Source of the DNA: a virus
Lineage: Duplodnaviria > Caudoviricetes
DNA length: 59,668 bases
IMG/VR virus record: IMGVR_UViG_3300031862_000785
Coordinates: 1-59,668 of that record
Reading direction: 5' to 3' (one strand)
Shown here: in pieces, positions 21,692-56,978 of the stretch
Numbering within the stretch: position 1 is the stretch's first letter
Layout: every line of letters starts with the position of its first letter
Made by a program: the position numbers and the translations under genes
The notes under the pieces: generated by a model
Database searches by the model: none
Told to the model about the DNA's origin: nothing
What the model saw: only the letters and a program-made list of their open reading frames with translations

Positions 21692-21706
21692 CTCCAGCAT
21701 CTCCTG

Positions 21707-21810
21707 AAAAAGCAAAGAGGCGGGCTTTCTCTGAGCCGCCTGGGGCTACCAGGCACAGCTCTCAGAAAGCCCGCCTCTCGTTATCGAGTCGGCGGTATGC
21801 TATTCAGTTC
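21707..21810 (-). ncRNA. Structured leader/attenuator (copy 1) upstream of the head operon
   Basis: GAATAG-N8-CGA-CTCG(ATAA)CGAG, then a 15-bp stem (21716-30/21764-78) and TTGCTTTTT. Confidence 0.6.
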
Positions 21811-21815
21811 ACCCT

Positions 21816-21843
21816 ATTCTATCGCACCCGGGCCAGGTGTCAA
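21816..21843 (-). promoter_or_regulatory. Sigma70-type promoter
   Basis: TTGACA-N16-TAGAAT. Confidence 0.7.
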
Positions 21844-25452: not shown

Positions 25453-26952
25453 TCACCCCTCTGCCCCGGCCTCCGGCTGCTCCTCTGTGCGGGCTTCCTG
25501 CCCCTTGCGACCGCCAGCCCCGGTGAGAGCCACGGCCTGCCCGGTTTCCTCGGCGATCCGCGCCACCTCGGCCTCGACCGCGTCCGGGCCGTCCAGGCGG
25601 CGCACTGAGGACTCGACCGAGGTGTTGCCCGAGGCCAGGCGCTGGCTCTCGATCTCCACCATCTCCACCATGTCCTCTGGCAGCCCATCCGCCCACTGGA
25701 TGGTCGGCTCGGCAGGCTCGTATTCGCCGGACCCGTGAGTCACATCAAGAACCTGGGCGGTGAGGAGCGCCGCTTTGAGCGCGGTATCGTAGTAGAGCCG
25801 CTTGCGGTTGATCTTTGCCAGGGTGCGCAGCAGTCGAAGCCGCAATGCCCGGCCGCTTTCGGCGACTCCGAACTTGTCCAGCCCGAAAGCCGACGGCGCG
25901 GTCTCGGAGAGCATGAAGAGCAGGTCGAGCAACTTCTCGAACTGTGTGAAGGCCGCGGTCAGGTGGGCGTCCCAGGTGATGTAGGAAGGAGGCTGATCGC
26001 CCGGCCCCAGCTCGATGGTCTCCATGTGGTCGAACCGAATCTTCCCATCTTCGTCCACGAAGCCGGGCGGCACCACGATCTTCGGAGCCACGTGCTTATC
26101 CAGCACTTCATCGATCTGGGAAACGCGGTTATTCAAGGACTCGAAGAGCGACTCAAGGCCCTCATAGTCGCTGATCCCCCAGAACCGCGAGCCGTACCGG
26201 AAGTTGGGGACGTGGAAGATCGGGATGTGATCCAGGCCGGTCTGTTCCTCTTCGGGCAGGTCCTGATAGGCTTCGAGGGTCTTCAGGGGAATCTGCTGGA
26301 GCGCCTTGCCGCCAATCGTGATCGTCGCGGCCTGGCTTCCCGCGACGGACAGAGTGGAGACGCTGCCCAGATCGAAGAGCTGGTGGCGGATGACGCCTGG
26401 CTCGTGCACCTCGGCTCGCAGGTAGGCGCGCTTGGCATCCTTGGGATCGCGCTTCACCCAGGCAAGGGTGACGCGGATCACCTTGCGCACATCATCGTCA
26501 TCCAGTTCGGGGAAGTAGATGCTGGCGGGGACCTCTTCAATGATCGACTCTGGTTGCTCTGCTTGCGGAGTCCGCTTCCCCCAGCGCACCTTGTAGACTG
26601 CATCCCCCCGGAACGAGTTGGACAGGGCCGATTCGTAGTTGACGGCGTGCAGGTTATTGCGACTGACGACCTGGGCCAGCGCTTCCTGCGCCTTCTCATC
26701 CTCCTGTGTTGCCAGGCCCGCCTTGAGCGAAGCCGAAAGGAAGTCTGGCTGCTCCCCGAAAAGCAGGTCAGCGGAAAGCCGCGAGATCAGCCCGGCGAAG
26801 TTGGCCACGATATAGCGCTTCATCTGGTAGGGCTGCGGCACCACGGCAAAGACCAGCTTGTGCTGCCCCAGGAACAGCCGCTCATACCGCTGGTAAGTGG
26901 CGATGCGCTCCTGGTGCCCCTTGGGCGGGTAAGTGCTCAGGTCAAGTGCCAC
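25453..26952 (-). CDS. Portal protein (SPP1 gp6-like)
   Basis: 499 aa; NFAGLISRLSADLLFGE, HVPN, WGISDY, ESGRALR; AAGGAG RBS. Confidence 0.9.
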   Translation of the reverse strand: MALDLSTYPPKGHQERIATYQRYERLFLGQHKLVFAVVPQPYQMKRYIVANFAGLISRLSADLLFGEQPDFLSASLKAGLATQEDEKAQEALAQVVSRNNLHAVNYESALSNSFRGDAVYKVRWGKRTPQAEQPESIIEEVPASIYFPELDDDDVRKVIRVTLAWVKRDPKDAKRAYLRAEVHEPGVIRHQLFDLGSVSTLSVAGSQAATITIGGKALQQIPLKTLEAYQDLPEEEQTGLDHIPIFHVPNFRYGSRFWGISDYEGLESLFESLNNRVSQIDEVLDKHVAPKIVVPPGFVDEDGKIRFDHMETIELGPGDQPPSYITWDAHLTAAFTQFEKLLDLLFMLSETAPSAFGLDKFGVAESGRALRLRLLRTLAKINRKRLYYDTALKAALLTAQVLDVTHGSGEYEPAEPTIQWADGLPEDMVEMVEIESQRLASGNTSVESSVRRLDGPDAVEAEVARIAEETGQAVALTGAGGRKGQEARTEEQPEAGAEG

Positions 26953-26974
26953 TACATATCTCCTTTCCGCTGGG

Positions 26975-27055
26975 AAAGCAAAAGCGAGCCGAGGTCCTGT
27001 CAGGGAACCTGCGGCTCGCCTCCGGTTATCCGGTCGCCGAGCGTCTATTCGATTG
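26975..27055 (-). ncRNA. Structured leader/attenuator (copy 2) upstream of the portal
   Basis: GAATAG-N8-CGA-CCGG(ATAA)CCGG-AG, then GCGAGCC..GGCTCGC stem and TTTTGCTTT. Confidence 0.6.
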
Positions 27056-27060
27056 TCAGC

Positions 27061-27089
27061 ATTTTATGCCCGGGGTCTCCCAGCGTCAA
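27061..27089 (-). promoter_or_regulatory. Sigma70-type promoter
   Basis: TTGACG-N17-TAAAAT. Confidence 0.7.
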
Positions 27090-27817
27090 GCAGTGGTTGT
27101 GCCACAGAATCTCTGTTGCAGCAACTGAAAGTCCTCCTCCAGCCGATCATGATAGTCGGGAAGATATTCGAGGATGACGTTCCCTTGCCAGCCATACCCG
27201 ATCAAAGCTTCCACAACCTGCAGGCACTCGTCATCGATTGGCAGGTGATGCGTTCTGTGGCCGCCCTTGCCGGAGAGATGGACGGTGGAGACATGCGGGT
27301 GGTACTCATGCACGATCCGCCACACCACTTCCGTGTCATGAAGGTGGGCGACATCCAGCGTCATCGGGCGTGCAAGTCGCATGATGTCGTCGACGCTGAA
27401 AAGTCGCTTGCCTCCCATGAAGGTTTCCAGACAGAAGCTCACCGAGTAGGCCGCCTCGATTCCCCGGCAGGTTTCCAGTACCCTATGCTGGGTTTCGGGC
27501 ACCGGCCGATCCTTCTGAAACCTGCTGGGATGAACGGTGATCTCGCGGACTCCGAGGAGGCTGGCGAATCGGCCCACCTCCTCCGCCCAGATCCGGAAAC
27601 CTGGGTCGGCGAGCCTGCCCTGTGGAGCATGAACGCTGAGGATCGGCGTCCGCCATTTCAGGAGTAAGCCAGCGAGTTCGGTGAGGTGGGGATGGATCAG
27701 CTCGTAGTCGGTCATCTTGTATGGCAGCGCGAGTTCGATGGGAATCTGACACTCGCGATAGCGCGGGGTGAACTGCTCGAGCGTGTTGAATGATTGCCTG
27801 ATCCCGAATCTGATCAT
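27086..27817 (-). CDS. Xylose isomerase-like/AP endonuclease 2 TIM-barrel protein
   Basis: Metal-ligand motifs IELALP, SVHAP, TVHP, LET, TLDVAH, VHLS, HLP, LEY. Confidence 0.8.
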   Translation of the reverse strand: MIRFGIRQSFNTLEQFTPRYRECQIPIELALPYKMTDYELIHPHLTELAGLLLKWRTPILSVHAPQGRLADPGFRIWAEEVGRFASLLGVREITVHPSRFQKDRPVPETQHRVLETCRGIEAAYSVSFCLETFMGGKRLFSVDDIMRLARPMTLDVAHLHDTEVVWRIVHEYHPHVSTVHLSGKGGHRTHHLPIDDECLQVVEALIGYGWQGNVILEYLPDYHDRLEEDFQLLQQRFCGTTTA

Positions 27818-27818
27818 G

Positions 27819-28676
27819 TTACGTCGGGGAATCCTCCCAGAGCCTGACTTCCAGTTGCTCCAGGAGCGCATTCAGGCGCTCATAGGCATCGCGAGTCACG
27901 ATGGCACGCTCCTCCGGATCGGCGATCTCAAGAAACTCAGCGACCGCGACCGGCCCGAAATGCTCAGGTGAGAGGAACTTGCTCCGTATCTTCGACAAGC
28001 CTTCAGCCACCAGCCGCTTGTCGACATGAGGCCGGAAGGCCTCCACCAAGGCAGCAACACCTCCTGGGTAGTTGGCGACGCAGTAGAAGATGTCGTAGCA
28101 ATCCTTCTCCTTGCGCCGGTCATGAAGAGCCATCCCCTTCATCACGAGGAAGGCCACTACGTCTGCGACCTTCACGGTCACCGTGTCAAGCGCACCGTTC
28201 GGCAGCCGTCCCTCGACGCGAACCTGGACGCAGTGGTCGAAGACCAAGTCAGCCCCACGTGCTTTGCGGGCTCGGACATCCTGGACGACCTGCGTGCGGC
28301 GGCCCTTCCCGGTCCCCCCGTACTCTCCGGCCAGGAGATCAACTTCGACCTCGACCGGCGGGCCATCTCCGATGGTGACCACCTTGAAGAATCGGAAGGG
28401 CTGCTCGTGGTCTTGTCGGTAGCCGCGCGCCTCAAGCGCCTTGAGGAACGTGCTGTAGGTATCGTCTGAGATGTGCGCAAAGTCTATGGCCAGATCCACG
28501 TCCAAGGTGCCCGCTGGCTCTGTGTCTGCATCGCGGAGGATCAGGTGCGGCACCCAGCCGCCGATGACCGCGATGTGTTCGCGGAACTCGCCGAGCATGC
28601 CGAACAACTCGATGAGCACCGAAAAGGCCGCGTCTACTGCTCTGGCTGCGTAGTCTGATCTGGTTCTGGGTTCCAT
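27819..28676 (-). CDS. AbiEii-like nucleotidyltransferase toxin
   Basis: VIGGW...GTLDVD, VDLL, MKG.A..DR..EKD.YDI. Confidence 0.8.
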   Translation of the reverse strand: MEPRTRSDYAARAVDAAFSVLIELFGMLGEFREHIAVIGGWVPHLILRDADTEPAGTLDVDLAIDFAHISDDTYSTFLKALEARGYRQDHEQPFRFFKVVTIGDGPPVEVEVDLLAGEYGGTGKGRRTQVVQDVRARKARGADLVFDHCVQVRVEGRLPNGALDTVTVKVADVVAFLVMKGMALHDRRKEKDCYDIFYCVANYPGGVAALVEAFRPHVDKRLVAEGLSKIRSKFLSPEHFGPVAVAEFLEIADPEERAIVTRDAYERLNALLEQLEVRLWEDSPT

Positions 28677-29866
28677 CGCGGCCTAATGCGCCTTTCGTAG
28701 AGGAAGTCTGCGGCCTCTTCGCCACGGCCCTTGTAGCTCTTCAAGTCGAGGTAAAGTTGGATGTCCGACACGACCTTCGCTCCCCCGACGTCCTGGAGAC
28801 CATAGAAGACGCCCTCATCGTAGGGGCGGAGCAGGATCACGTTGGCCCCCGTGGGGACCGCCTTCAACTCCAATGCCGCTGCAATCTCATTGAACTTGGA
28901 GAGCCTGCGCAGCAGGTCGAGCTTCAAGTCCTGCTCGATATCCTCTCGGTCGTCCTTGGTGAACCCGGCCCGGCCGACTAACTGCCAGGCCTTGTGTCTG
29001 ATGAGCTGAACGGCATAGTCCTCGAGTCTCTCATCAACGAATGCAAAGGCGCGGTCATAGCGAGCGAAGGGGGCAACCCGGCTTGCACCCGAGAACAGGG
29101 CCAAGCCGTAGCGCATGCCTCTCCGTTCACACTCCGCGGCAAGGCGCTCCTCCACCTCTGGAATGCGGAGCATCGAGTACAGAGACCGCACGTCGTTCAC
29201 TTCGTAGGTGTAGGCCTGCGCCCAATCGCGAAGGAGGTCTTCAGGTTTCGCCAGCCAGAAGCGGCGGCGCTCTTCGCCCAGCAGGTCTTGTTCGAGCAGC
29301 GCCCGCTTCAAGTTGGACGTCTGCGCAAGACTGATCCGCGCTTCGGCCGCCAAGTCGCGGACATACCATCGCCGGGCAGGGTCAGCGAGTAGAACACGTA
29401 AGACCCGCGTGGACCGCGGTGAGAACAACGCCCTCCGAAGTCTCCGCACGGGCGAGGGATTGGGATATCCGGTCTTCTCAATGAACACCTGGTCAAAGGC
29501 GAGCAGAACATTCCCAGCCAGATCGAGACAGCCGACCCCGAACTGCTGGCAGAGAGCCCGGCCCCGGTCGCTTATGTAGGGAGCAGCCACCACCCCGTAG
29601 GCATCTGGCACACTCGCGACATAAGCCTTGAGCTGCTCTCCGGCATCACGCAGGGTCCTCGGAAGACCCTCTGTCTTCACCTCCACCAGGAGCCGGCGCG
29701 CTCCGACGGGCGTCTGAATCTCCACCACCAGGTCGGAGACGCGCCCGGGCGCGATGGGGACCTGCTGCTCGATCCGCAACACATCCACGAATGGCACTTC
29801 CTCCAGCACCTCACGAAGGCGCTGGGCGGTCTCTGCTGTCAGATTTCTCTCTTTGATCGCTGGCAT
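28634..29866 (-). CDS. AbiEi-like type IV antitoxin carrying a 44-aa insertion
   Basis: DLVVE..LLVEVK, APYIS, LDLAGN, wHTH, then GANVILL.PYD.GV and VVSDIQLYLDL...GRGEEAA. Confidence 0.8.
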   Translation of the reverse strand: MPAIKERNLTAETAQRLREVLEEVPFVDVLRIEQQVPIAPGRVSDLVVEIQTPVGARRLLVEVKTEGLPRTLRDAGEQLKAYVASVPDAYGVVAAPYISDRGRALCQQFGVGCLDLAGNVLLAFDQVFIEKTGYPNPSPVRRLRRALFSPRSTRVLRVLLADPARRWYVRDLAAEARISLAQTSNLKRALLEQDLLGEERRRFWLAKPEDLLRDWAQAYTYEVNDVRSLYSMLRIPEVEERLAAECERRGMRYGLALFSGASRVAPFARYDRAFAFVDERLEDYAVQLIRHKAWQLVGRAGFTKDDREDIEQDLKLDLLRRLSKFNEIAAALELKAVPTGANVILLRPYDEGVFYGLQDVGGAKVVSDIQLYLDLKSYKGRGEEAADFLYERRIRPRWNPEPDQTTQPEQ

Positions 29867-29934
29867 GGTCTGCTCCAACCTGACGGTGAACAAAGTCGCC
29901 CTGGCGAACTGCCAAGGTGTTTCGGCAAGTCGCC

Positions 29935-29983
29935 AGTTTCACCGTCTCGGTGAAACTATACCATATACCGAAACAATGGTCAA
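29935..29983 (-). promoter_or_regulatory. Moron promoter with overlapping operator palindrome
   Basis: TTGACC-N17-TATAGT with extended -10 TG; perfect inverted repeat AGTTTCACCG-N3-CGGTGAAACT at 29935-57. Confidence 0.75.
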
Positions 29984-30317: not shown

Positions 30318-31943
30318 CTACCATCCCGCCGGTCGTTGAGTCGTGCCGCGAGACACACCCCGCTTGCGCGCTTGCCAGGCGATCCCGGCTGCCATCACCC
30401 GGTCGTCGAACTTGCCCTCCTGCGCCTCCTGCGAACCCGTGTCTGTCGTGACGAAGGTTAAGCACTCGTCGACCAGGTCGGGCGAGTGAACCAAGGGATG
30501 CTCGCCTGCGATTGCCGCCGCCAGGTCATCTACCAGGATGGGCTTGGTGGCCTGGTCGGTGGGCCAGCCGAGCATGGGCTTCCCTTTGCCCGTCTGGTCG
30601 TAGCGCACGTGGTAGTAGAGCCGCGGGTAGCGGCAGACGTTGCGCAGCGTGTTCAGCGTCGAGTGCCCGTGGTTGTTACGCTCGACCGCTACCGTCGCCA
30701 GGTTGTAGAAACGGCCCAGAGCGTCCAGCAGGCAGCCGAAGCGATCCGGCGCAATGCGCCCGTGGAGTTCGGCGACTTGCTCCCCGGTCTCCCGGTCAAC
30801 CACACAGGCACAGGAGGCGTCGCCGCCGGCCAATCCCTCGCCCACGTCCGCACCGACGACGTAGAGCCGCCCCTTCTCGGGTCGCTTCCACACCGACAGC
30901 CGGGCCGGCGCAACCCCGATGTCCTGCCCTCGCGCATCCTTGAGGGCAGCCAGCATCTTTGGCGCGGGCTCGGCGACGATGCGAGCCTGGATTGCCAGCA
31001 GCGACTGGGTGTCGAAGCAGCAGCGCCCGCTGGCGAGGAAGCAAGTCACATCATCCTCAGGGTATTCGGCCTTGAAGCGGTCTCGAAGCTGCCGCTGCTT
31101 ATCGCGCCGCCAACGAATCTGATCGTCGTCGAGGCTCCACGCGCGTTTGAGCCGCGTCTCCTCCTGGCTGAGGTCGGTCAGTGGCTCGCCCGCGATCCGA
31201 TAGGCCGGGTCTTCCCACCAGACATAGAACGCCGTCGCAAAGTCATTGCCGCCGCTTTTGGCCTCGGTCCAAAGGCTGTGAAAGAAGTTGCCCATCCCAT
31301 TTGCGGTGGACTCGATGACGATTCGGCCACCGGTGGGAACCGCTTCCGTCAGCGCAGTCAGGGCTTCTTCAGGCTTCGGCCAGAAGGCGAACTCCGAGCA
31401 GTGCAGGTTGTTGATGGTCTGGCCCCGTCCGAACGTCAGGCTGCCGGCGGTGCCCACGTAGAACTGGCTGTTGATCTTCGGCCACAGGAACTCTCTGCGG
31501 TTGGAGAAACGAGGCGGCCCTACTCGTCGGCGCTCCTCCTCTGGCAGCCGCTCCCAGAACAACTGCACGATGCGGAAGATCTTCTCGCTGGAATCGGTAT
31601 CGTGCGCCACGATCACCGAAGTCGTATTCAGTCGCAGCAAGGTGTCCGCGAAGAACAAGCCGCAGATCAGCGTCGTGAAGCCGAGCTGCCGCGGCTTCAG
31701 AATCATGTCCCGAAGCGTGCGGTGAGCCCAGTAATCTACCTGGGCCGCGTTGAGCAGGAACGGAATCACTCGTCTATCCTTCGTGCGAATCCACAGGTTC
31801 GCTTCGATCCACGGCCTGGGATTCCGCCGCTCCTCCAGCAGGGCCGCCAGCCGGGCCTCCAGCGCCTCTCGCACACGCGCGGAGGAAGGTAAGGGCAGAT
31901 TCGGCCTCGCTGTCGCTGAGTTGTCGCAAATCGAGGTCACCAA
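30318..31943 (-). CDS. terL: Terminase large subunit
   Basis: LKPRQLGFTT (Walker A), LHCSEFAFW (Walker B), IESTANG, GADVGEG, VERNNHG, DDRVMA; start uncertain. Confidence 0.93.
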   Translation of the reverse strand: MVTSICDNSATARPNLPLPSSARVREALEARLAALLEERRNPRPWIEANLWIRTKDRRVIPFLLNAAQVDYWAHRTLRDMILKPRQLGFTTLICGLFFADTLLRLNTTSVIVAHDTDSSEKIFRIVQLFWERLPEEERRRVGPPRFSNRREFLWPKINSQFYVGTAGSLTFGRGQTINNLHCSEFAFWPKPEEALTALTEAVPTGGRIVIESTANGMGNFFHSLWTEAKSGGNDFATAFYVWWEDPAYRIAGEPLTDLSQEETRLKRAWSLDDDQIRWRRDKQRQLRDRFKAEYPEDDVTCFLASGRCCFDTQSLLAIQARIVAEPAPKMLAALKDARGQDIGVAPARLSVWKRPEKGRLYVVGADVGEGLAGGDASCACVVDRETGEQVAELHGRIAPDRFGCLLDALGRFYNLATVAVERNNHGHSTLNTLRNVCRYPRLYYHVRYDQTGKGKPMLGWPTDQATKPILVDDLAAAIAGEHPLVHSPDLVDECLTFVTTDTGSQEAQEGKFDDRVMAAGIAWQARKRGVSRGTTQRPAGW

Positions 31944-43769: not shown

Positions 43770-43802
43770 GTTGTATGTGCTCGCCGCTGTCATGGCTCTC
43801 CA

Positions 43803-44537
43803 CTAACTACCTACGGGAAAGCGCGCGAAAGTGTCGGGATCGCCTTGCGGATTTTCGCTCCGGCTCACCCGGCGGAGCCACGGCTGTTCGACATTGTGGT
43901 TGTGGAGGCGCAATCGGCTGCCCCGTGGGCTGATGATCTCGATAAACTGACTGGTGATCTCGCCCACCCGATCATCGCTGTGGAGAAAGCAGACCAGGCC
44001 GTAATCCTGCCCGCAGGGGAAGCTGTAGCGGCCGCGGTTCTGGTAAAGCTGCATCTCCGACCATCCCGCCGCCAGCGCGCGGTCACGGATGGCGTCAACC
44101 TTGGCAACCGCCTCGGCTGAGGCAGGTTCTGTGAAACGCCAGTCACCATCTGTCGGGTAGACGTGCGGAGGCGGGGGCGTGGGCTCCCCTGGCTCCTTCA
44201 CCATCGGAGGCGAGTAGCGCGTCGGGTCGAGCGACTTCATCGCCTCCAGAAGAGCCTGCTCGCCGAAACGCTCAACTGCCCAGAAGTGAACCGCATTGAA
44301 TCGGTCGCGCAAGTCTTCATACTGCCTGGAGGGAAGCCGGCCCCTTTCGTAGCGCTTCTGTGCCAGCGCCATCCTGGAGCGCAGCCAGGCATAGTACTCG
44401 GGGTCGAGCCGACGGAACCCGCACGGCTCGCAGATCTCGTCCTGGTCGGGCCGAACGGGAGCCTTCGCCTCCCAGGTCTCCAGGTTGGTGGCGACATAGA
44501 GGTGCGCTCCGTCTCGAATCCCGGCCTCGGCGCTCAT
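43803..44537 (-). CDS. Hypothetical protein
   Basis: 244-aa ORF with GGAGG RBS, coupled to the upstream gene. Confidence 0.65.
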   Translation of the reverse strand: MSAEAGIRDGAHLYVATNLETWEAKAPVRPDQDEICEPCGFRRLDPEYYAWLRSRMALAQKRYERGRLPSRQYEDLRDRFNAVHFWAVERFGEQALLEAMKSLDPTRYSPPMVKEPGEPTPPPPHVYPTDGDWRFTEPASAEAVAKVDAIRDRALAAGWSEMQLYQNRGRYSFPCGQDYGLVCFLHSDDRVGEITSQFIEIISPRGSRLRLHNHNVEQPWLRRVSRSENPQGDPDTFARFPVGS

Positions 44538-51846: not shown

Positions 51847-52782
51847 TCAGAATGCAGGAACCTCGCTCATGGAAGGCCCCCGCTGTTCCCGCAGCTCTTC
51901 GTGCGGGGGAACGCGCTGGTAGAAGTTGTCAATCACGTTCGGGCTGCCGCCGGAGCGACAGAGCGAAAAGTATGGACACGGCCGGTAGTGGTGAAAGCAG
52001 AAGGCGGTGTTCTGGTACCAGGCGTTCCGCCGCCTGGCGTCGAGGAAGGCCTGGGTGAGTTCCCACAACTCGGCGCGCAGCACGGTGAACTGGTCGCGGG
52101 AGAGATAGAGCATCTCCCGGTGAAACATCGCCGGCTGAGCATACTTAGCTGCCAGGCGATCCGCGAACTCGGCCTCGCTCTCCGTGCGGCGCTGCTTCAG
52201 CCGCGCCTTGAGCAGCAGGTTGTAGAACACGCCGGTGATGCGAATGCTGAGCGCCTGCTCCAGGTAGTAGGCGTAGAGCGTGATCTGGAAGTCGGTCCAG
52301 AGGCGCTCCAGGTAACCGCCGTCAAGAGCAGAGGCGGTCTTGTGCTCCAGCACGAAGTGCTCGTCTCCGACGCGGACGAGACCGTCCACCTTGCCGGCGA
52401 GCACGAAACTGCGAGAGCGCGCCCTGGTGGCCGGGTTGATGATCTCGCCTTCGAAGGTGTGCTCGAGAGCGAGAACCTCGAACTCCTCGGCCGGGTAGCG
52501 ATTCGCGTAGCCGGCCATCATCGCTGTGCCCAGACGCCAGTCCCGGCGCTGCTCATCATCCTGGACTCGGGCCGGCAGCCTCTGGTCGACGTGCTCCAGC
52601 ACCGCTGCGAGGTCGCGGTCGCGGTGCCAGATCTCCAGGCACTCGTGGACGAGAGTCCCGAAGCCGAGGCGCGGGTCACGCCTGATCGGCGCAAGCTCGC
52701 GCATGTAGCGCCAGTAGCAGGCCTTCCGGCAGTTGCGAAACAGACTCCACATCGAGTAGGTGGTGGTCATGCGAGGCGTCAT
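51847..52782 (-). CDS. PD-(D/E)XK (RecB/Cas4-like) exonuclease
   Basis: FRNC, GTLVH, GKVDG..VLEHKT, Q...Y, C..C..C cluster. Confidence 0.85.
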   Translation of the reverse strand: MTPRMTTTYSMWSLFRNCRKACYWRYMRELAPIRRDPRLGFGTLVHECLEIWHRDRDLAAVLEHVDQRLPARVQDDEQRRDWRLGTAMMAGYANRYPAEEFEVLALEHTFEGEIINPATRARSRSFVLAGKVDGLVRVGDEHFVLEHKTASALDGGYLERLWTDFQITLYAYYLEQALSIRITGVFYNLLLKARLKQRRTESEAEFADRLAAKYAQPAMFHREMLYLSRDQFTVLRAELWELTQAFLDARRRNAWYQNTAFCFHHYRPCPYFSLCRSGGSPNVIDNFYQRVPPHEELREQRGPSMSEVPAF

Positions 52783-53129
52783 CGGCGAGCCTCCGCCACC
52801 AAGGCGTCCTCGCGCTGGCGTCCGACTCGCTCGATGCGGAAAGCTTCCTCTCCGAACTGCCGGATGAGGAAGTTGGTGAAGATGCGAGCCACCGTGTGGC
52901 CCGCCTCCGTGCGGGCGTCCACCACGAGGGCGCGCTTGTCATCGTCGGCACAGAAGGAAACATCCAGGCGGATACAGGAGCGGCCGTGAAGGCCCTCCGC
53001 CGCGAAGATGGAGAGCAGAAGCGACTCGTGCACCTCCTTCATGCACGCGCCGGGTTCGAAGCGAAAGCGGTAGATCTCCGGTGTCATCGGTCTCTCCATC
53101 CTGGTTGGGCTCAACCTCGCCCACTTCAT
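52779..53129 (-). CDS. Hypothetical protein
   Basis: 116-aa ORF coupled in the operon (start may be the internal MTPEIY). Confidence 0.65.
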   Translation of the reverse strand: MKWARLSPTRMERPMTPEIYRFRFEPGACMKEVHESLLLSIFAAEGLHGRSCIRLDVSFCADDDKRALVVDARTEAGHTVARIFTNFLIRQFGEEAFRIERVGRQREDALVAEARR

Positions 53130-53131
53130 AC

Positions 53132-53752
53132 CTACGGGATCTCGCGCGAAAGTGACGGCGCCGGCTGGAGGTACTCGCGGAGCCCCGCCTCTTCGAAGAT
53201 CGCCCGGAGTCTGGAGCGCGGCCCGTAGAGGGTGGTGCGGGGAACTCCCAGGGCAGCCGCGACCTCCGAGATGGTGGCGCTCATCAGTCGTCGGCAGAGG
53301 TCTTGCTGCCCCGGGGGGATGTGGGCAAGGAGGCGCTCCAGGTCAACCTTCCGCGCGACCTCATCTTCCAGGGACAACTCGCCGACGCTGTGCTGGCTGC
53401 GAACGGCGTCCTCATGGGCGATGTCCTCGATGGACACCTCGTCGCCCTCAGCGGTCTGGACGGTATCTGAGAGCGAGCAGACGTTGAGCCGGAAGTCGCG
53501 GCGAGCAGTGCGGCGGGCATCCAGAATGTCGGCGGCCTTGTGTTCGACGATTCGGGTGACGAACGCCCCGAGTCTCCCGCGCGTGGGGTCGAACTTAGAA
53601 AGCTGCTCCAGGACGTGAAGAGTCAGGTCGCCTTCGATGTCCTCGCCTTCGTCCCTGGTGACACCGGCCTTGCCGATCAGTCGAGATGCTGTGCGCCGGA
53701 TGATCTGAAATGCCTCTGCGTCGAGTTCCTTGCGGCTGGAATCGGAACCCAT
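53132..53752 (-). CDS. ECF/sigma-70-like factor
   Basis: Region 2 (EDIEGDL...KFDPTRG..AFVTRIV) and region 4 HTH (TISEVAAALGVPRTTLY). Confidence 0.8.
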   Translation of the reverse strand: MGSDSSRKELDAEAFQIIRRTASRLIGKAGVTRDEGEDIEGDLTLHVLEQLSKFDPTRGRLGAFVTRIVEHKAADILDARRTARRDFRLNVCSLSDTVQTAEGDEVSIEDIAHEDAVRSQHSVGELSLEDEVARKVDLERLLAHIPPGQQDLCRRLMSATISEVAAALGVPRTTLYGPRSRLRAIFEEAGLREYLQPAPSLSREIP

Positions 53753-53817
53753 CCTTTCCTCCTCGCGGCCGAGGAGGAGCCCGTGGCGGGTGCCGCCCAG
53801 CTCCGGGGAAGCATCGA

Positions 53818-53900
53818 GAAACGATCAGAGGTCGCTGCGAGTTCGCCGGCTTGGCGACACCCACAACGACCTCCGCTCTGCGGCCAGTACGTTGTCTGGT
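53818..53900 (-). ncRNA. Structured leader (divergent copy 3) upstream of the sigma gene
   Basis: CCGC(AGA)GCGG-AGG, then a 15-bp stem (53859-73/53828-42) with three G-U pairs and an apical TCGCC/GGCGA stem. Confidence 0.5.
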
Positions 53901-53920
53901 GACGGAATATGGCCCCGGTC

Positions 53921-54235
53921 TCAGACCGGAACCGGAACACTCATCTGAAACGGAAGCCCGTGCTTGACAGTCAGCACCTCGATCACGCCGTTGCCCATCT
54001 CGTCGAGCGAAGCGAAGAACTCCACGGCGTGGATCTTCAGGATGAAGTCCCCGGCCTCGCGCTCAGGGCGGGGGCCGTTCTCCTTGCCGAACGCGACATC
54101 GCGCACAGCGCGTGGCAGGGGATCGAAGACCGGCTCGCCGCCGACGATCAGCAGGTTCTCGATCCGGCCGAAGCCGAGTTCCTGGCAGATCTCAAGCAGG
54201 CGCTGCCGGGCAGGGGAGAGATCGCTTTTTCGCAT
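53921..54235 (-). CDS. Small protein with two DUF2292-like repeats
   Basis: LLEICQELGFGRIENLLIVGGEP and FFASLDEMGNGVIEVLTVKHGLP; GGAGG RBS. Confidence 0.7.
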   Translation of the reverse strand: MRKSDLSPARQRLLEICQELGFGRIENLLIVGGEPVFDPLPRAVRDVAFGKENGPRPEREAGDFILKIHAVEFFASLDEMGNGVIEVLTVKHGLPFQMSVPVPV

Positions 54236-54433: not shown

Positions 54434-55477
54434 CTACACCAGAGCGAGATCGGGCGGGAACAGCCGGAGCCGATGGCCCACGCGGTGTCGCGTTTCGATC
54501 AGCCGGGTGCCGGCACCGGCCTCCGCAGCATCCAACGCGCGGCGGAGTTCCTTTACCGTGTCGTGTATCTGACGGCGGTAGATCATCATCTTAACGCTTT
54601 CGCCGGGCCAGAACATGGCGTAGATCGTCTCCCGCTTGACCCAGCCTTCATCGCCCCCGGCTGCCTGCCGCGCAAGGAGCACGAGGAGTTGGAAGGCACG
54701 TGGCGGCATGGACAGAGCGACACCACGGAAGTAGGCCTGGTGGCCCGCCACATTCACTAGGAGCACGGCCTCCGCAGCCAGCAGCGGTTTCGGGCGCGAT
54801 AGGGCTTCGGTCCTCCAGTAATCGCAGATCGTCTCGGTGACCGCTTGCGTGTCCAGCTTGAGACCATCGTGGTCGAGGTTCAGCATCCGGCAGAGCGGAA
54901 GCACCTGGGTTCTCTCATTGAACACGCCGTCCGCGGGAGCCTCCGCAAGGGTGAGGACGACAGACACTGCGCTCCCTCGGAACGCCGTTCGCTGGTCGAA
55001 GACTTCCCGCGCATCGCTCCATCCGACTCCGCGGGCAAGGAACATGTCTCCGTCGCCTTCCCTGGCCACTACCTTCCCCAACGACCACAGTCGCCCAGTT
55101 ACGCGCTCCTCGACATTTCCTTTCGCGCCGAGTTCTTCGGCGACGATCTCTGCCAGGGGGCCAAGGTCAACCTTCCACTGCCTTAGCCGCTCCAGGGGGA
55201 TAGCTACCCGTCCGATATCGTCTCGCTCCTCACAAACGACATATGCTCGCGGAGGCTCCCCCTCTCCGGCATCGAGGAGTTCCACCTCTGCCAGGCAACG
55301 CTGCTCGCACCCTGGGCAAGTGGTGGAGGTCGCGTAATCGCCTTGCCTCAGCACGCCTGATGAGCGCAGTGCTGCCAGGTGTTCACGAGGCCAGCGCGCG
55401 ACGTCCTCAGTCTCGAATGATGTACTGGACGCTACGTCGGCGCTTTGCAGAACCGTCCTGAGTGCGTCCTGAGACAT
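54434..55477 (-). CDS. Hypothetical protein with Cys motif and C-terminal OmpR-like winged helix
   Basis: CPGC...C...C; FQLLVLLA...V.RE.I...W...VKELRRAL...IETRHRVG.RL. Confidence 0.7.
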   Translation of the reverse strand: MSQDALRTVLQSADVASSTSFETEDVARWPREHLAALRSSGVLRQGDYATSTTCPGCEQRCLAEVELLDAGEGEPPRAYVVCEERDDIGRVAIPLERLRQWKVDLGPLAEIVAEELGAKGNVEERVTGRLWSLGKVVAREGDGDMFLARGVGWSDAREVFDQRTAFRGSAVSVVLTLAEAPADGVFNERTQVLPLCRMLNLDHDGLKLDTQAVTETICDYWRTEALSRPKPLLAAEAVLLVNVAGHQAYFRGVALSMPPRAFQLLVLLARQAAGGDEGWVKRETIYAMFWPGESVKMMIYRRQIHDTVKELRRALDAAEAGAGTRLIETRHRVGHRLRLFPPDLALV

Positions 55478-56633
55478 CGATGTTCCACCTCCTCAGCAGC
55501 TCTCGGGCGATATCATCTTCTGGGTCATGCTTCAGCGAGCACGAGTTCGGATGGGAGACGCGGATCGTGAGTCGCTTCCGTGAAGCTGCTTCTGGGCGAA
55601 ACACAAGTTGGATGCTGGCACGGTCGGCGACTACCAAGTCGGAGGGGATTCCCTTCGCCTTGAGGACAACCTGCAGCAACTCCCGAACCCCCCCGGGGTC
55701 TTTTCTCGTGTTAGCCTCCAGCGTGATTCGCCGGTTCGCCTCCCCCATGATACGCACCCGAAGTGACTGAAGTAACGCGCAGTCCACCCCGTCTTCCGGC
55801 TGCAGCACGAACTGGAAGTCAGGACGCAGAATGCCGTTGAGTTCGTAGCTGATGCCCTGGTCGTCGAGGCCCGACAAATCGACGCCCAGGATCGCACGGC
55901 CGAAAACCAGCCGCAGCTCTCGCTTCGTGTCGTGGGAACCTCGCGCGTGTAGGTCGAGCCAGCGGTCCTTCTCATCGTAAACAAAGATCACCTCGAACGC
56001 GGGCCGCTGAGTCTGGGGCCTGAGCATATGCTTGATGTCGTACACCAGCCGGCTTTCGGCGTAGTCTTCCGGATGGGCGAACCAGTATAGCCTGCTGTCC
56101 CTTCGGTAGTGGTCCACTTTGCAGTGGTGACCGCGGCCCTCCGCCCTGCTGTAATACTGAGATAGGTCGCTCTCCAGGCGCCGGGTCCCCTCCCGGCTCG
56201 TGTCCGGCTTGCACTCGGGCAGGTCACGTGACCGATCCCAACTGGCCAGTCCAGCGGCGTAGTGGAGCTGCTGGGCGACCCGGAACACCTTGGGATGATG
56301 GAGGAACGTCCAGAAGGCGCGTTCCAGGTGACCCCCCATCTTCGCGAAGTCCTCGGCCAACTCGACGCGATGGTGTCGGTCCCTGCCCTCGTCTATGAGT
56401 GTCTTCGTGCCACCCTCGTCGGCCATCCCGTATACTCGCCGGAAGTCGGTGTCTATCTCCCGCCTGATCTTCTCCGGCGCGCTGTCAATCGCTCGCTGGA
56501 TATGTTCAATCTTCCGCTCGCTGAGATGCTTCCATGGAATATCTTCTCCGATCCCACGCTTCGTCAGATACTGCTTCAGCAGCGTGTTCGGAGCCTGCCG
56601 CAAGAACGACTTCGGAGAGTATTGCCTCGACAT
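55407..56633 (-). CDS. Hypothetical protein
   Basis: MSRQYSPK start at 56633 with AAGGAGG RBS. Confidence 0.7.
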   Translation of the reverse strand: MSRQYSPKSFLRQAPNTLLKQYLTKRGIGEDIPWKHLSERKIEHIQRAIDSAPEKIRREIDTDFRRVYGMADEGGTKTLIDEGRDRHHRVELAEDFAKMGGHLERAFWTFLHHPKVFRVAQQLHYAAGLASWDRSRDLPECKPDTSREGTRRLESDLSQYYSRAEGRGHHCKVDHYRRDSRLYWFAHPEDYAESRLVYDIKHMLRPQTQRPAFEVIFVYDEKDRWLDLHARGSHDTKRELRLVFGRAILGVDLSGLDDQGISYELNGILRPDFQFVLQPEDGVDCALLQSLRVRIMGEANRRITLEANTRKDPGGVRELLQVVLKAKGIPSDLVVADRASIQLVFRPEAASRKRLTIRVSHPNSCSLKHDPEDDIARELLRRWNIDVSGRTQDGSAKRRRSVQYIIRD

Positions 56634-56978
56634 GCTCGCCCCTCCTTGCCAGCAGCAGTATAGCACTCCATCAGGCGAGCAGGAAGCACTAAACCCCGTG
56701 GCGATGGTCTCCCGCGGACTTACCACGCAAGCAGCAGTGTCGCAGAATAGCGCCGCAAGGCTCGTGCAGGCTGGTAGAACAGTGAGGGCGGTATTCCCTG
56801 CCACTCAGGAACAGACAGGCGCCAGGCTGAGTCGGCGCTTGGCGTTGCCCCGGAATCCGCCCCTGAAGCCCCTGTGTGCCGCAAGAAGGGAGAGGTAGGC
56901 GTCCTTTTGCCCCACCGACCGGCTGTCCGCCCGCAACAGGGCCAGTGGGCGCTCACGCGGGCAAGCGCAACGCGGCCG

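Follow-up and report, generated by a model that had tools for sequence, protein, structure and literature searches.

A structured leader between P1 and a sigma gene

The whole stretch of DNA analysed here (hereafter, the window) is an IMG/VR provirus record of 59,668 bases that is rated 100% complete; it has 65% G+C and carries almost every gene on the minus strand, as are all features described below. The subject of this report is a set of small protein genes and leader RNAs in this window. P1 (53921..54235), an acidic 104-amino-acid (aa) open reading frame (ORF) with two tandem helix + β-hairpin repeats, is the first gene of a module that continues with a structured RNA, the early leader (53753..53920; delimited by alignments and covariation), an ECF-like sigma gene (53132..53752), and, as fourth member, a 116-aa gene (52779..53129) whose start abuts the sigma stop. 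P2 (30047..30307), an 86-aa ORF with one copy of a pattern found twice in P1, lies between a putative terminase large subunit gene (30318-31943) and the leader of a putative portal gene (25453-26952), both gene labels being taken from a first reading by sequence alone. This portal late leader (26973..27089) was delimited by a promoter scan and folds and is conserved in relatives; a second late leader (21706..21843) precedes the genes for a 123-aa protein, the scaffold, and the major head protein. The gene downstream of the early leader is predicted to encode a sigma-70 family, ECF-like protein with regions 2 and 4, as suggested by matches to Sigma70_r2 (25.2 bits; cut-off 24) and phrog_1740 (1.9e-12) and by weak Pfam helix-turn-helix matches at residues 159-176; its score against TIGR02937 (31.8 bits) is under the cut-off of 42.9. 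The 116-aa protein presented zero family matches in Pfam, PHROG, and NCBIfam.

A small hairpin and a long stem, which the first-pass annotation had described directly behind P1, are indeed present (CCGC-AGA-GCGG-AGG at 53883-53870), and this part of the RNA (53826-53906) folds far better than shuffled sequences, with a minimum free energy (MFE) of −43.7 kcal/mol and a z of −4.5. The same interval is the 5′ module of the early leader, consisting of ACCAGACA, a hairpin designated Pa, and a long hairpin; a covariance model of this module, R1, scores 80.8 bits here, the only match above noise in the window. Pa (CCGC-AGA-GCGG; 53873..53883) is paired in 99.3% of alignment cells, and the GG at its 3′ end and the AGG that comes next reach into the base of the long hairpin, an arrangement like that of a ribonucleic antiterminator (RAT). 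The long hairpin (53828..53872) is terminator-like, carries an invariant GUGGG (53860-53864) in its 5′ strand, and has a U-poor tail in the window. Further downstream, the strand GGCGGCACCC (53788..53797) pairs with GGGUGUCGCC (53853-53862), a pairing that excludes the middle of the long hairpin, and the sigma Shine-Dalgarno (SD) sequence GAGGAGG pairs with UCCUCCUCG in an SD hairpin (53757..53778).

Alignments of 70 distinct P1-sigma spacers (A3 and A4) support these pairings. RNAalifold chooses Pa and a long-range helix, GUGGGUGCC / GGCACCCAC (columns 46-55/135-145), which is 92.3% paired with compensatory changes at three pairs; the third pair of Pa occurs as GC (43 sequences), AU (26), and UA (1), and the two pairs flanking Pa are 97.9% paired. 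Pa, its flanks, and the long-range helix together are 94.8% paired versus 30-54% when the partner strand is slid, show compensatory changes at 11 of their 16 pairs, and have a score that none of 500 shuffles reached. The inner half of the long hairpin is 86% paired; for its outer part (63-71% paired), in which the alignment register slips, single-sequence folds were relied on instead. These MFE folds gave the local long hairpin and the SD hairpin in 12 of 12 leaders. The two halves of the SD hairpin are 91% and 70% paired, with compensatory changes. Pairing between the downstream strand and the sigma start region is seen in 64.6% of cells (26-38% when slid); here, leader and coding sequence covary. 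In 31 of the 70 leaders (~44%), the local hairpin is followed by a U tract, which is borderline in the window, and unpaired letters of the alignment are invariant across phyla. As the GUGGG strand has two mutually exclusive partners, and its downstream partner likewise, the leader appears to follow a switch logic whose default closes the sigma start. A search of the whole window against Rfam 15 had no match at the gathering scores, and 53753-53920 had none at E ≤ 10. The early leader is thus very probably a real, new, and widespread RNA switch in front of a phage sigma gene.

Two other roles for the conserved letters were considered and rejected: a leader peptide starting at the invariant GUG would range from 4 to 271 aa with all three frames occurring, and pairing of the leader GGAGG with the anti-SD strand was seen in 60% of cells versus 40-60% when slid. 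Many relatives also carry a hairpin, GGGG-YYGGCY-CCCC (A3 columns 10-25), right after the P1 stop, followed by an A+T-rich stretch and then an ACCWGACA box; this hairpin is absent in the window. Upstream of P1 (54236-54433), right after the preceding winged-helix gene, we observed a G+C-rich hairpin followed by UUUCUCGUCUU, and a second hairpin (GAGAGU..ACUCUC) just 5′ of the P1 ribosome-binding site; no sigma-70-like promoter was found in this interval.

The module is widespread. P1 relatives were collected as 80 loci from species genomes, with flanks of 4 kb in which neighbours were sought by tblastn from window genes; record titles name more than 10 phyla, including Planctomycetota, Acidobacteriota, Myxococcota, Desulfobacterota, Chloroflexota, Ignavibacteria, Verrucomicrobiota, and Bacteroidota, and the binning of prophage contigs into genomes can err. 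The sigma gene was found downstream of P1 in 74 of these loci, the 116-aa gene in 53, and a recombinase upstream in 29; P2, terminase, and portal were found in none of the 80 within these flanks of merely 4 kb. Among the 74 loci with both P1 and sigma, the spacer measures 137-209 nucleotides (nt) in 72 and 84 and 95 nt in the remaining two, and an R1 match lies directly 3′ of P1 in 78 of the 80 loci (the exceptions being L009, without a match, and the truncated L030). In the near-isogenic provirus G156 (locus L152, G156:3288-6367), P1, sigma, and the 116-aa protein are 43%, 44%, and 55% identical to those of the window, respectively, while the next gene is 87% identical and the late proteins are 93-98% identical. 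P1, the leader, sigma, and the 116-aa gene have therefore been replaced together and behave as one module, in line with the functional link between small protein and leader that had been postulated for the early side. Synteny and module swapping make this link likely, not exclusive.

Late leaders and their variable small gene

Both late leaders are built from the same parts in the same order, namely a sigma-70-like promoter, GAAUAG, strand 1, the small hairpin, strand 2, and a strong terminator to which strand 2 contributes the 5′ side; the late operons are thus headed by host-type promoters with strong terminators ~70-100 nt on. The portal leader consists of the promoter TTGACG-17-TAAAAT (27061-27089), GAAUAG (27045-27050), strand 1 GCUCG (27038-27042), the hairpin CCGG-AUAA-CCGG (27022-27033), strand 2 CGAGC (27014-27018), and a terminator (26984-27020) with its U tract (26975-26983). 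In the second leader, the promoter TTGACA-16-TAGAAT (21816-21843) is followed by strand 1 CCGCC (21791-21795), the hairpin CUCG-AUAA-CGAG (21777-21788), and strand 2 GGCGG (21771-21775), then by a terminator and U tract. When folded without strand 3, the two leaders form an antiterminator (−17.0 kcal/mol, z −3.3 and −15.6 kcal/mol, z −3.8, respectively); when folded whole, they form the terminator (−34.0 kcal/mol for the portal leader; −52.6 kcal/mol, z −7.1 for the second leader). The two small hairpins of the window have the same loop (AUAA) and flanks and differ in two base pairs; since these changes are compensatory and the loop is kept, they argue for recognition of an RNA shape rather than a DNA operator. 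We consider it highly probable that both late leaders act as antiterminator/terminator switches and that a factor specific to each phage reads them.

Relatives of the portal gene presented the same upstream layout in all 18 loci that include the portal start. Their leader pairings were read by eye and sorted, also by eye, into eight types (A-H), in which the letters of the hairpin and strands differ while the complementarity of strand 1 and strand 2 is kept (e.g., GCUCG/CGAGC vs. CCGCC/GGCGG). The small gene between terminase and portal varies with the hairpin type: P2 occurs with type A only, a 76-78-aa protein (..GGFGELVVSIKFHKGQPQELHVIERKPHYRL..) with type D, proteins related to the latter with types E to H, and another with type C. 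This small gene is the only variable gene in the relatives' fragments. Phages with types D and G encode terminases 88-95% and portal and 123-aa proteins 91-96% identical to those of the window; two of them, L108 and L109 (terminase 95% and portal 94% identical), have a type D leader and a small gene with no profile similarity to P2.

The second leader of relatives was found via its downstream 123-aa protein. Portal and second leaders are both of type D in G162 (loci L107 and L132) and G161 (L109 and L134), of type G in G160 (L123 and L133), of type F in G157 (L117 and L137), and of type H in G158 (L120 and L136); the window combines types A (portal leader) and B (second leader). A phage-specific hairpin is therefore common to both late leaders, located ~5 kb apart, in six of six phages read. 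Since a second leader 5 kb away changes with the small gene, hitch-hiking is unlikely, and a phage-specific trans-acting reader of the hairpin is implied. The functional link postulated for the late side is thereby strengthened, as hairpin type and small gene change together, including at the second leader; this provides indirect but good support for cognate protein-hairpin pairs. The reader of the late leaders is, on balance, predicted to be the adjacent small protein, P2 in this phage.

In the window, P2 and the portal leader are separated by a moron (27086..29983) that comprises an AbiEi/AbiEii-like pair (names from the first reading) and a 261-aa gene and has its own promoter, TTGACC-17-TATAGT (29955-29983). 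Removal of this moron had been predicted to bring P2 next to the leader, and this configuration is found in a natural relative (L082/L111), in which P2 and portal are ~235 nt apart with a promoter-hairpin-terminator leader of type A between them. The gap between small gene and portal leader is an insertion hot spot that holds the AbiE-like pair and 261-aa gene in the window, L081, and L083, nothing in L082/L111, and an unrelated 516-aa gene in L107 (L107:1192-2742).

The small proteins and the surrounding genes

A six-frame scan of the window with IE.L.[IV]..G.P returned exactly three matches, two in P1 (IENLLIVGGEP and IEVLTVKHGLP) and one in P2 (IEELDVHAGDP), as the first-pass annotation had noted; 200 residue shuffles gave a mean of 0.005 and a maximum of one match, for a pattern that was defined after the fact. 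The LL-x9-IE spacing also attributed to these copies does not hold, as P1 repeat 1 and P2 have LL-x10-IE, and P1 repeat 2 has FF in place of LL. Both repeats are retained in the alignment of the P1 family (FGRIExLxVxGGEP and GDGVIEVLxVKHGLPF), and an AlphaFold2 model of P1 (predicted local distance difference test score (pLDDT) 91.6; predicted template modelling score 0.84) shows helix + β-hairpin twice (H8-20/E23-31/E34-36 and H68-80/E83-91/E94-99), which together support the suggested internal duplication. The P2 model was poor (pLDDT 59) and unfit for structural comparison.

No Pfam, PHROG, or NCBIfam match was found for P1, and its model had no fold match in Foldseek searches of the PDB (best E 0.62), a wide VIA-align search (best Z 2.7), or BFVD (best E 0.45); the ESM Atlas returned solely 'hypothetical protein' clusters, viral or from Planctomycetota. 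PDB sequence searches with the profiles of P1 (A1) and P2 (A2) gave nothing below E 1. The P1 family is large (29 clusters by word search; 1836 representatives at E ≤ 1e-3 and 1292 at 1e-10 in the full hidden Markov model search), and the P2 family is narrow (three IMG/VR loci, 59-95% identity). A complex prediction for sigma (A7) and P1 (A1) scored 0.00, which amounts to no verdict and counts neither way.

Kinship among these proteins was assessed with A1, A2, and two further profiles, A8, built from 11 portal-side small proteins, and A10, built from 13 true DUF2292 proteins drawn from 11 of 251 genomes. BLASTP of P1 against P2 gave nothing. By hhalign, A1 matched A2 with a probability of 37.5% (P 3.5e-4, 44 columns) and A8 with 27.5%, while A2 and A8 gave 0.1%; against A10, the values were 36% for A8 (P 3.8e-4), 10% for A1 (P 3.1e-3), and 0.2% for A2. 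Where present, the matches always hit one helix-FG-strand-GxP element. The claimed kinship of P1 and P2 thus has the shared pattern in its favour, and the profile comparison leaves it marginal. The DUF2292 model (PF10055; cut-off 22 bits) had no match at E ≤ 1 in P1, P2, or the 6 of 11 A8 members scanned, matched 1 of 30 P1 relatives (E 0.03), and found nothing in a six-frame search of the window that recovered the Bacillus subtilis control; three P1-positive genomes (G001, G019, and G024) also had no PF10055 match. Given this mismatch and the weak hhalign values, we treat 'DUF2292-like', the earlier designation, as a resemblance and not as membership. This resemblance is to small DUF2292/YezD proteins in which a helix is followed by FG-x-V/I-x-I/V-x-V-H-D-G-x-V, the element to which A8 and P1 repeat 1 align. 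To our knowledge, DUF2292 has no known function. The single mention of DUF2292/YezD found in the literature, in sources accessible in part, is a genome announcement.

Along the minus strand, the window begins with DUF2924, a large serine recombinase, and a weakly matched ParB-HTH protein, followed by a 465-aa phrog_37634 protein (55407-56804), a 347-aa protein with a Trans_reg_C winged helix (54434-55477), P1, the 168-nt spacer, the sigma gene, and the 116-aa gene; the 347-aa and 465-aa genes, located between recombinase and P1, are variable cargo with homologues in just 6 and 4 of the 80 loci, respectively. Next come genes for a PD-(D/E)XK nuclease, AAA_24, DUF669, ERCC4, a RecD2-like helicase, and an AEP primase, then SbcC-like and methyltransferase genes, and finally terminase, P2, the inserted moron, portal, and the scaffold and major head genes. 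Two gene junctions carry copies of a 51-nt direct repeat (75% identical), one at the end of sigma and the start of the 116-aa gene (53121-53171) and the other at the end of gene 43803-44537 (43800-43850); a second sigma factor encoded by the latter gene, a candidate prompted by this repeat, was ruled out because the proteins are dissimilar.

A second R1 site was found 4-6 kb upstream of P1 in many prophages (e.g., L030:620-697, L050:344-423, and L039:266-333 (minus), with match pairs in G001, G002, G003, and G005); it has a shorter downstream part and precedes a small gene (MQDPxDPAAMTPEER...) and then, where checked, DUF2924. As the window ends inside a small gene of this type, any second copy of its own would fall outside it. 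A promoter-like motif, TTTCGnnC-N9-CGGTA(T/G)GTA, lies before leaders of this second type and, in three loci, also before the 116-aa gene (L050:303 and 5054, L039:367 (minus) and 4765, L034:4943, L103, and L104). The motif form TTTCG..GGTATGTA is absent from the window and was found in 3 of 74 loci. This motif may be the promoter type of the phage sigma factor itself.

A proposed cascade, its rivals, and known systems

These observations can be joined in a mechanism in which pairs of small protein and RNA leader probably switch on the sigma gene and then the late genes in turn. By default, the long hairpin of the early leader locks the GUGGG strand, and the sigma ribosome-binding site is covered by a second hairpin; additional pairing of the downstream strand with the sigma start-codon region is seen in many relatives. 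The locked strand has a perfectly complementary downstream partner, so that these two helices are mutually exclusive. P1, as a pseudo-dimer of two helix + β-hairpin units, could bind Pa and its flanks at the foot of the long hairpin, a predicted contact in which our confidence falls somewhat short of even. Binding would tip the leader open, such that sigma would be read through and translated only once P1 has accumulated. In the nascent late leaders, strand 1 and strand 2 may alternatively form an antiterminator around the small hairpin; P2, a single-unit relative or analogue of P1, would bind this hairpin and stabilize the antiterminator, permitting read-through into the portal and head genes. 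The cascade would run from P1 to sigma, from sigma to a middle operon ending with terminase and P2, and from there to the late operons. The chances appear evenly balanced that the window represents a complete temperate phage whose development is gated by such protein-RNA pairs at the transcript level.

Several points weigh against this mechanism. All of its protein-RNA links rest on position and co-variation; no profile similarity reaches a probability of 40%, those of A2 to A8 and to DUF2292 being the lowest; a count from the sequences shows P1, P2, and the small proteins of type D to be slightly acidic; and the P1 model fits no known RNA-binding fold in the searches given above. Among 151 Planctomycetota genomes, R1 occurs in 13 and P1 in 6; all six P1 genomes are R1-positive, leaving seven R1 genomes without detectable P1, in which R1 precedes another operon (a small gene, then DUF2924 where checked), as do the second R1 sites of many prophages. 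The expected co-occurrence of small protein and leader, checked with R1, holds when viewed from P1 (78 of 80 loci) and breaks down in these seven genomes. Most relatives with late leaders are fragments (17-70% complete), and another gene could co-vary with the hairpin. R1, run with filters off, misses both late leaders (26973-27050 and 21706-21805) up to E 10, so that the early leader, previously termed a third, divergent leader, cannot be regarded as a copy of these. Since 39 of the 70 early leaders have no U tract, antitermination, as first proposed for the P1-adjacent leader, cannot be their general mode, and termination can be only part of the control; the RNA is larger than had been described, and the features shared by all copies bear on translation.

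A ligand-sensing or otherwise autonomous early leader is a serious rival, albeit one that we rate as rather unlikely. The leader could then sense a host metabolite (as a riboswitch) or temperature, or keep time through slow refolding, or it would answer to a factor other than P1; P1, for its part, would have a protein target, such as sigma, the 116-aa protein, or the RNA polymerase of the host, and serve as an anti-sigma factor or co-factor. The use of the same 5′ module with another downstream part before another operon, including in the seven genomes without P1, gives the appearance of a riboswitch with one sensing part and several expression platforms; invariant unpaired letters across phyla, as well as a P1 that is acidic, exceeds sigma in conservation, and matches no known RNA-binding fold, fit this reading too. 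However, P1 adjoins the leader in nearly all loci, the invariance of GUGGG is partly due to its three pairing partners, no ligand pocket or known riboswitch family was matched, and a parallel exists at the late leaders, where a small protein with a similar motif is encoded upstream of a hairpin leader.

At the late leaders, the small genes between terminase and portal, including P2, might encode packaging or head-completion proteins that accompany the portal leader through adjacency alone, with another phage factor (the sigma module, for example, or a further gene) or the host opening the leaders. Small structural or packaging genes are typically found between terminase and portal in phage genomes, and the poor P2 model, the lack of profile similarity between P2 and A8, and the fragmentary state of most relatives are compatible with this view. 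It is nonetheless quite improbable, because the second leader ~5 kb away changes with the small gene in six of six phages while the structural genes between and around the two stay 91-96% identical; hitch-hiking accounts for the adjoining leader but not for the distant one. More improbable still are DNA inverted repeats for dimeric DNA-binding proteins, either a roadblock repressor or a loader resembling lambda Q. The small hairpins are palindromic and lie 25-40 bp downstream of strong promoters, and a precedent exists in lambda Q, which acts from a site in the DNA at a constitutive late promoter with a terminator behind it. However, the stems of the window differ yet stay complementary (CCGG/CCGG vs. 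CUCG/CGAG), and the hairpin is always enclosed in a helix of strands 1 and 2 that covaries across types and is in competition with the terminator, which suggests that these features matter only in RNA.

If the proposed cascade is correct, it would represent a common and unnoticed timing device of temperate phages (P1 family of 1836 representatives, >10 phyla) that combines proteins without a family or fold match and leaders without an Rfam family, in the libraries searched, in a design based on competition between RNA folds. It is possible, although tentative, that the 70-104-aa helix + β-hairpin proteins, with their distant ties to DUF2292/YezD, constitute a new fold class of hairpin-specific RNA-binding regulators, in which single units such as P2 and A8 open late terminators and the tandem P1 opens an unlisted RNA switch, and which form exchangeable, allele-specific cascades in many phyla. 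Leader types A/B, D, and G in near-identical backgrounds represent natural specificity alleles, and matched pairs of protein and hairpin without cross-reaction would lend themselves to use in gene circuits. For DUF2292, this would be a first testable lead and, if true, a first function.

A literature search, in sources accessible in part, found nothing on this system. In the accessible portion of a 2025 review of RNA-binding antiterminators (PMC12591593), the classes covered are CAT, ANTAR, and HutP, and the word 'phage' is absent. As with BglG/SacY/LicT and their RAT sequences, the small hairpin of the late leaders overlaps the 5′ strand of an intrinsic terminator, a feature kept in the eight leader types, and a protein that stabilizes the hairpin would allow read-through at that one terminator. 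Unlike these systems, the proteins described here have no CAT domain (Pfam; P1, P2, and 6 of 11 A8 members) and no PRD sensor domains, and are phage-encoded helix + β-hairpin proteins of 70-104 aa that would control late morphogenesis genes. ANTAR proteins carry a three-helix domain and target two small hexaloop hairpins, whereas Pfam found no ANTAR domain in the same set of proteins, and each leader has a single small hairpin, whose loop comprises 3-6 nt. The HutP protein forms a hexamer that is activated by histidine and binds NAG repeats. The gene order P1, leader, sigma resembles the hutP-hutH arrangement; there, according to the accessible portion of the same review, the operon opens with the regulator gene, and the spacer that separates it from the following gene contains the RNA target (PMC12591593). 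The system described here differs in that its proteins have no match to the HutP family and in that the early leader hides a ribosome-binding site, often without a U tract.

PHROG scans revealed no similarity to Q or N of phage lambda. In lambda, a constitutive late promoter, PR′, is followed by a close terminator, tR′, which is overridden by Q, and specificity alleles are exchanged as modules; Q loads from DNA and N depends on Nus factors, and under either protein the polymerase becomes processively resistant to termination. The late leaders resemble PR′-tR′ in having a host-type late promoter with a terminator close behind and in the swapping of specificity alleles between similar phages. 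They differ from the Q and N systems in that the late-leader RNA supplies its own antiterminator fold, which points to local competition between RNA structures.

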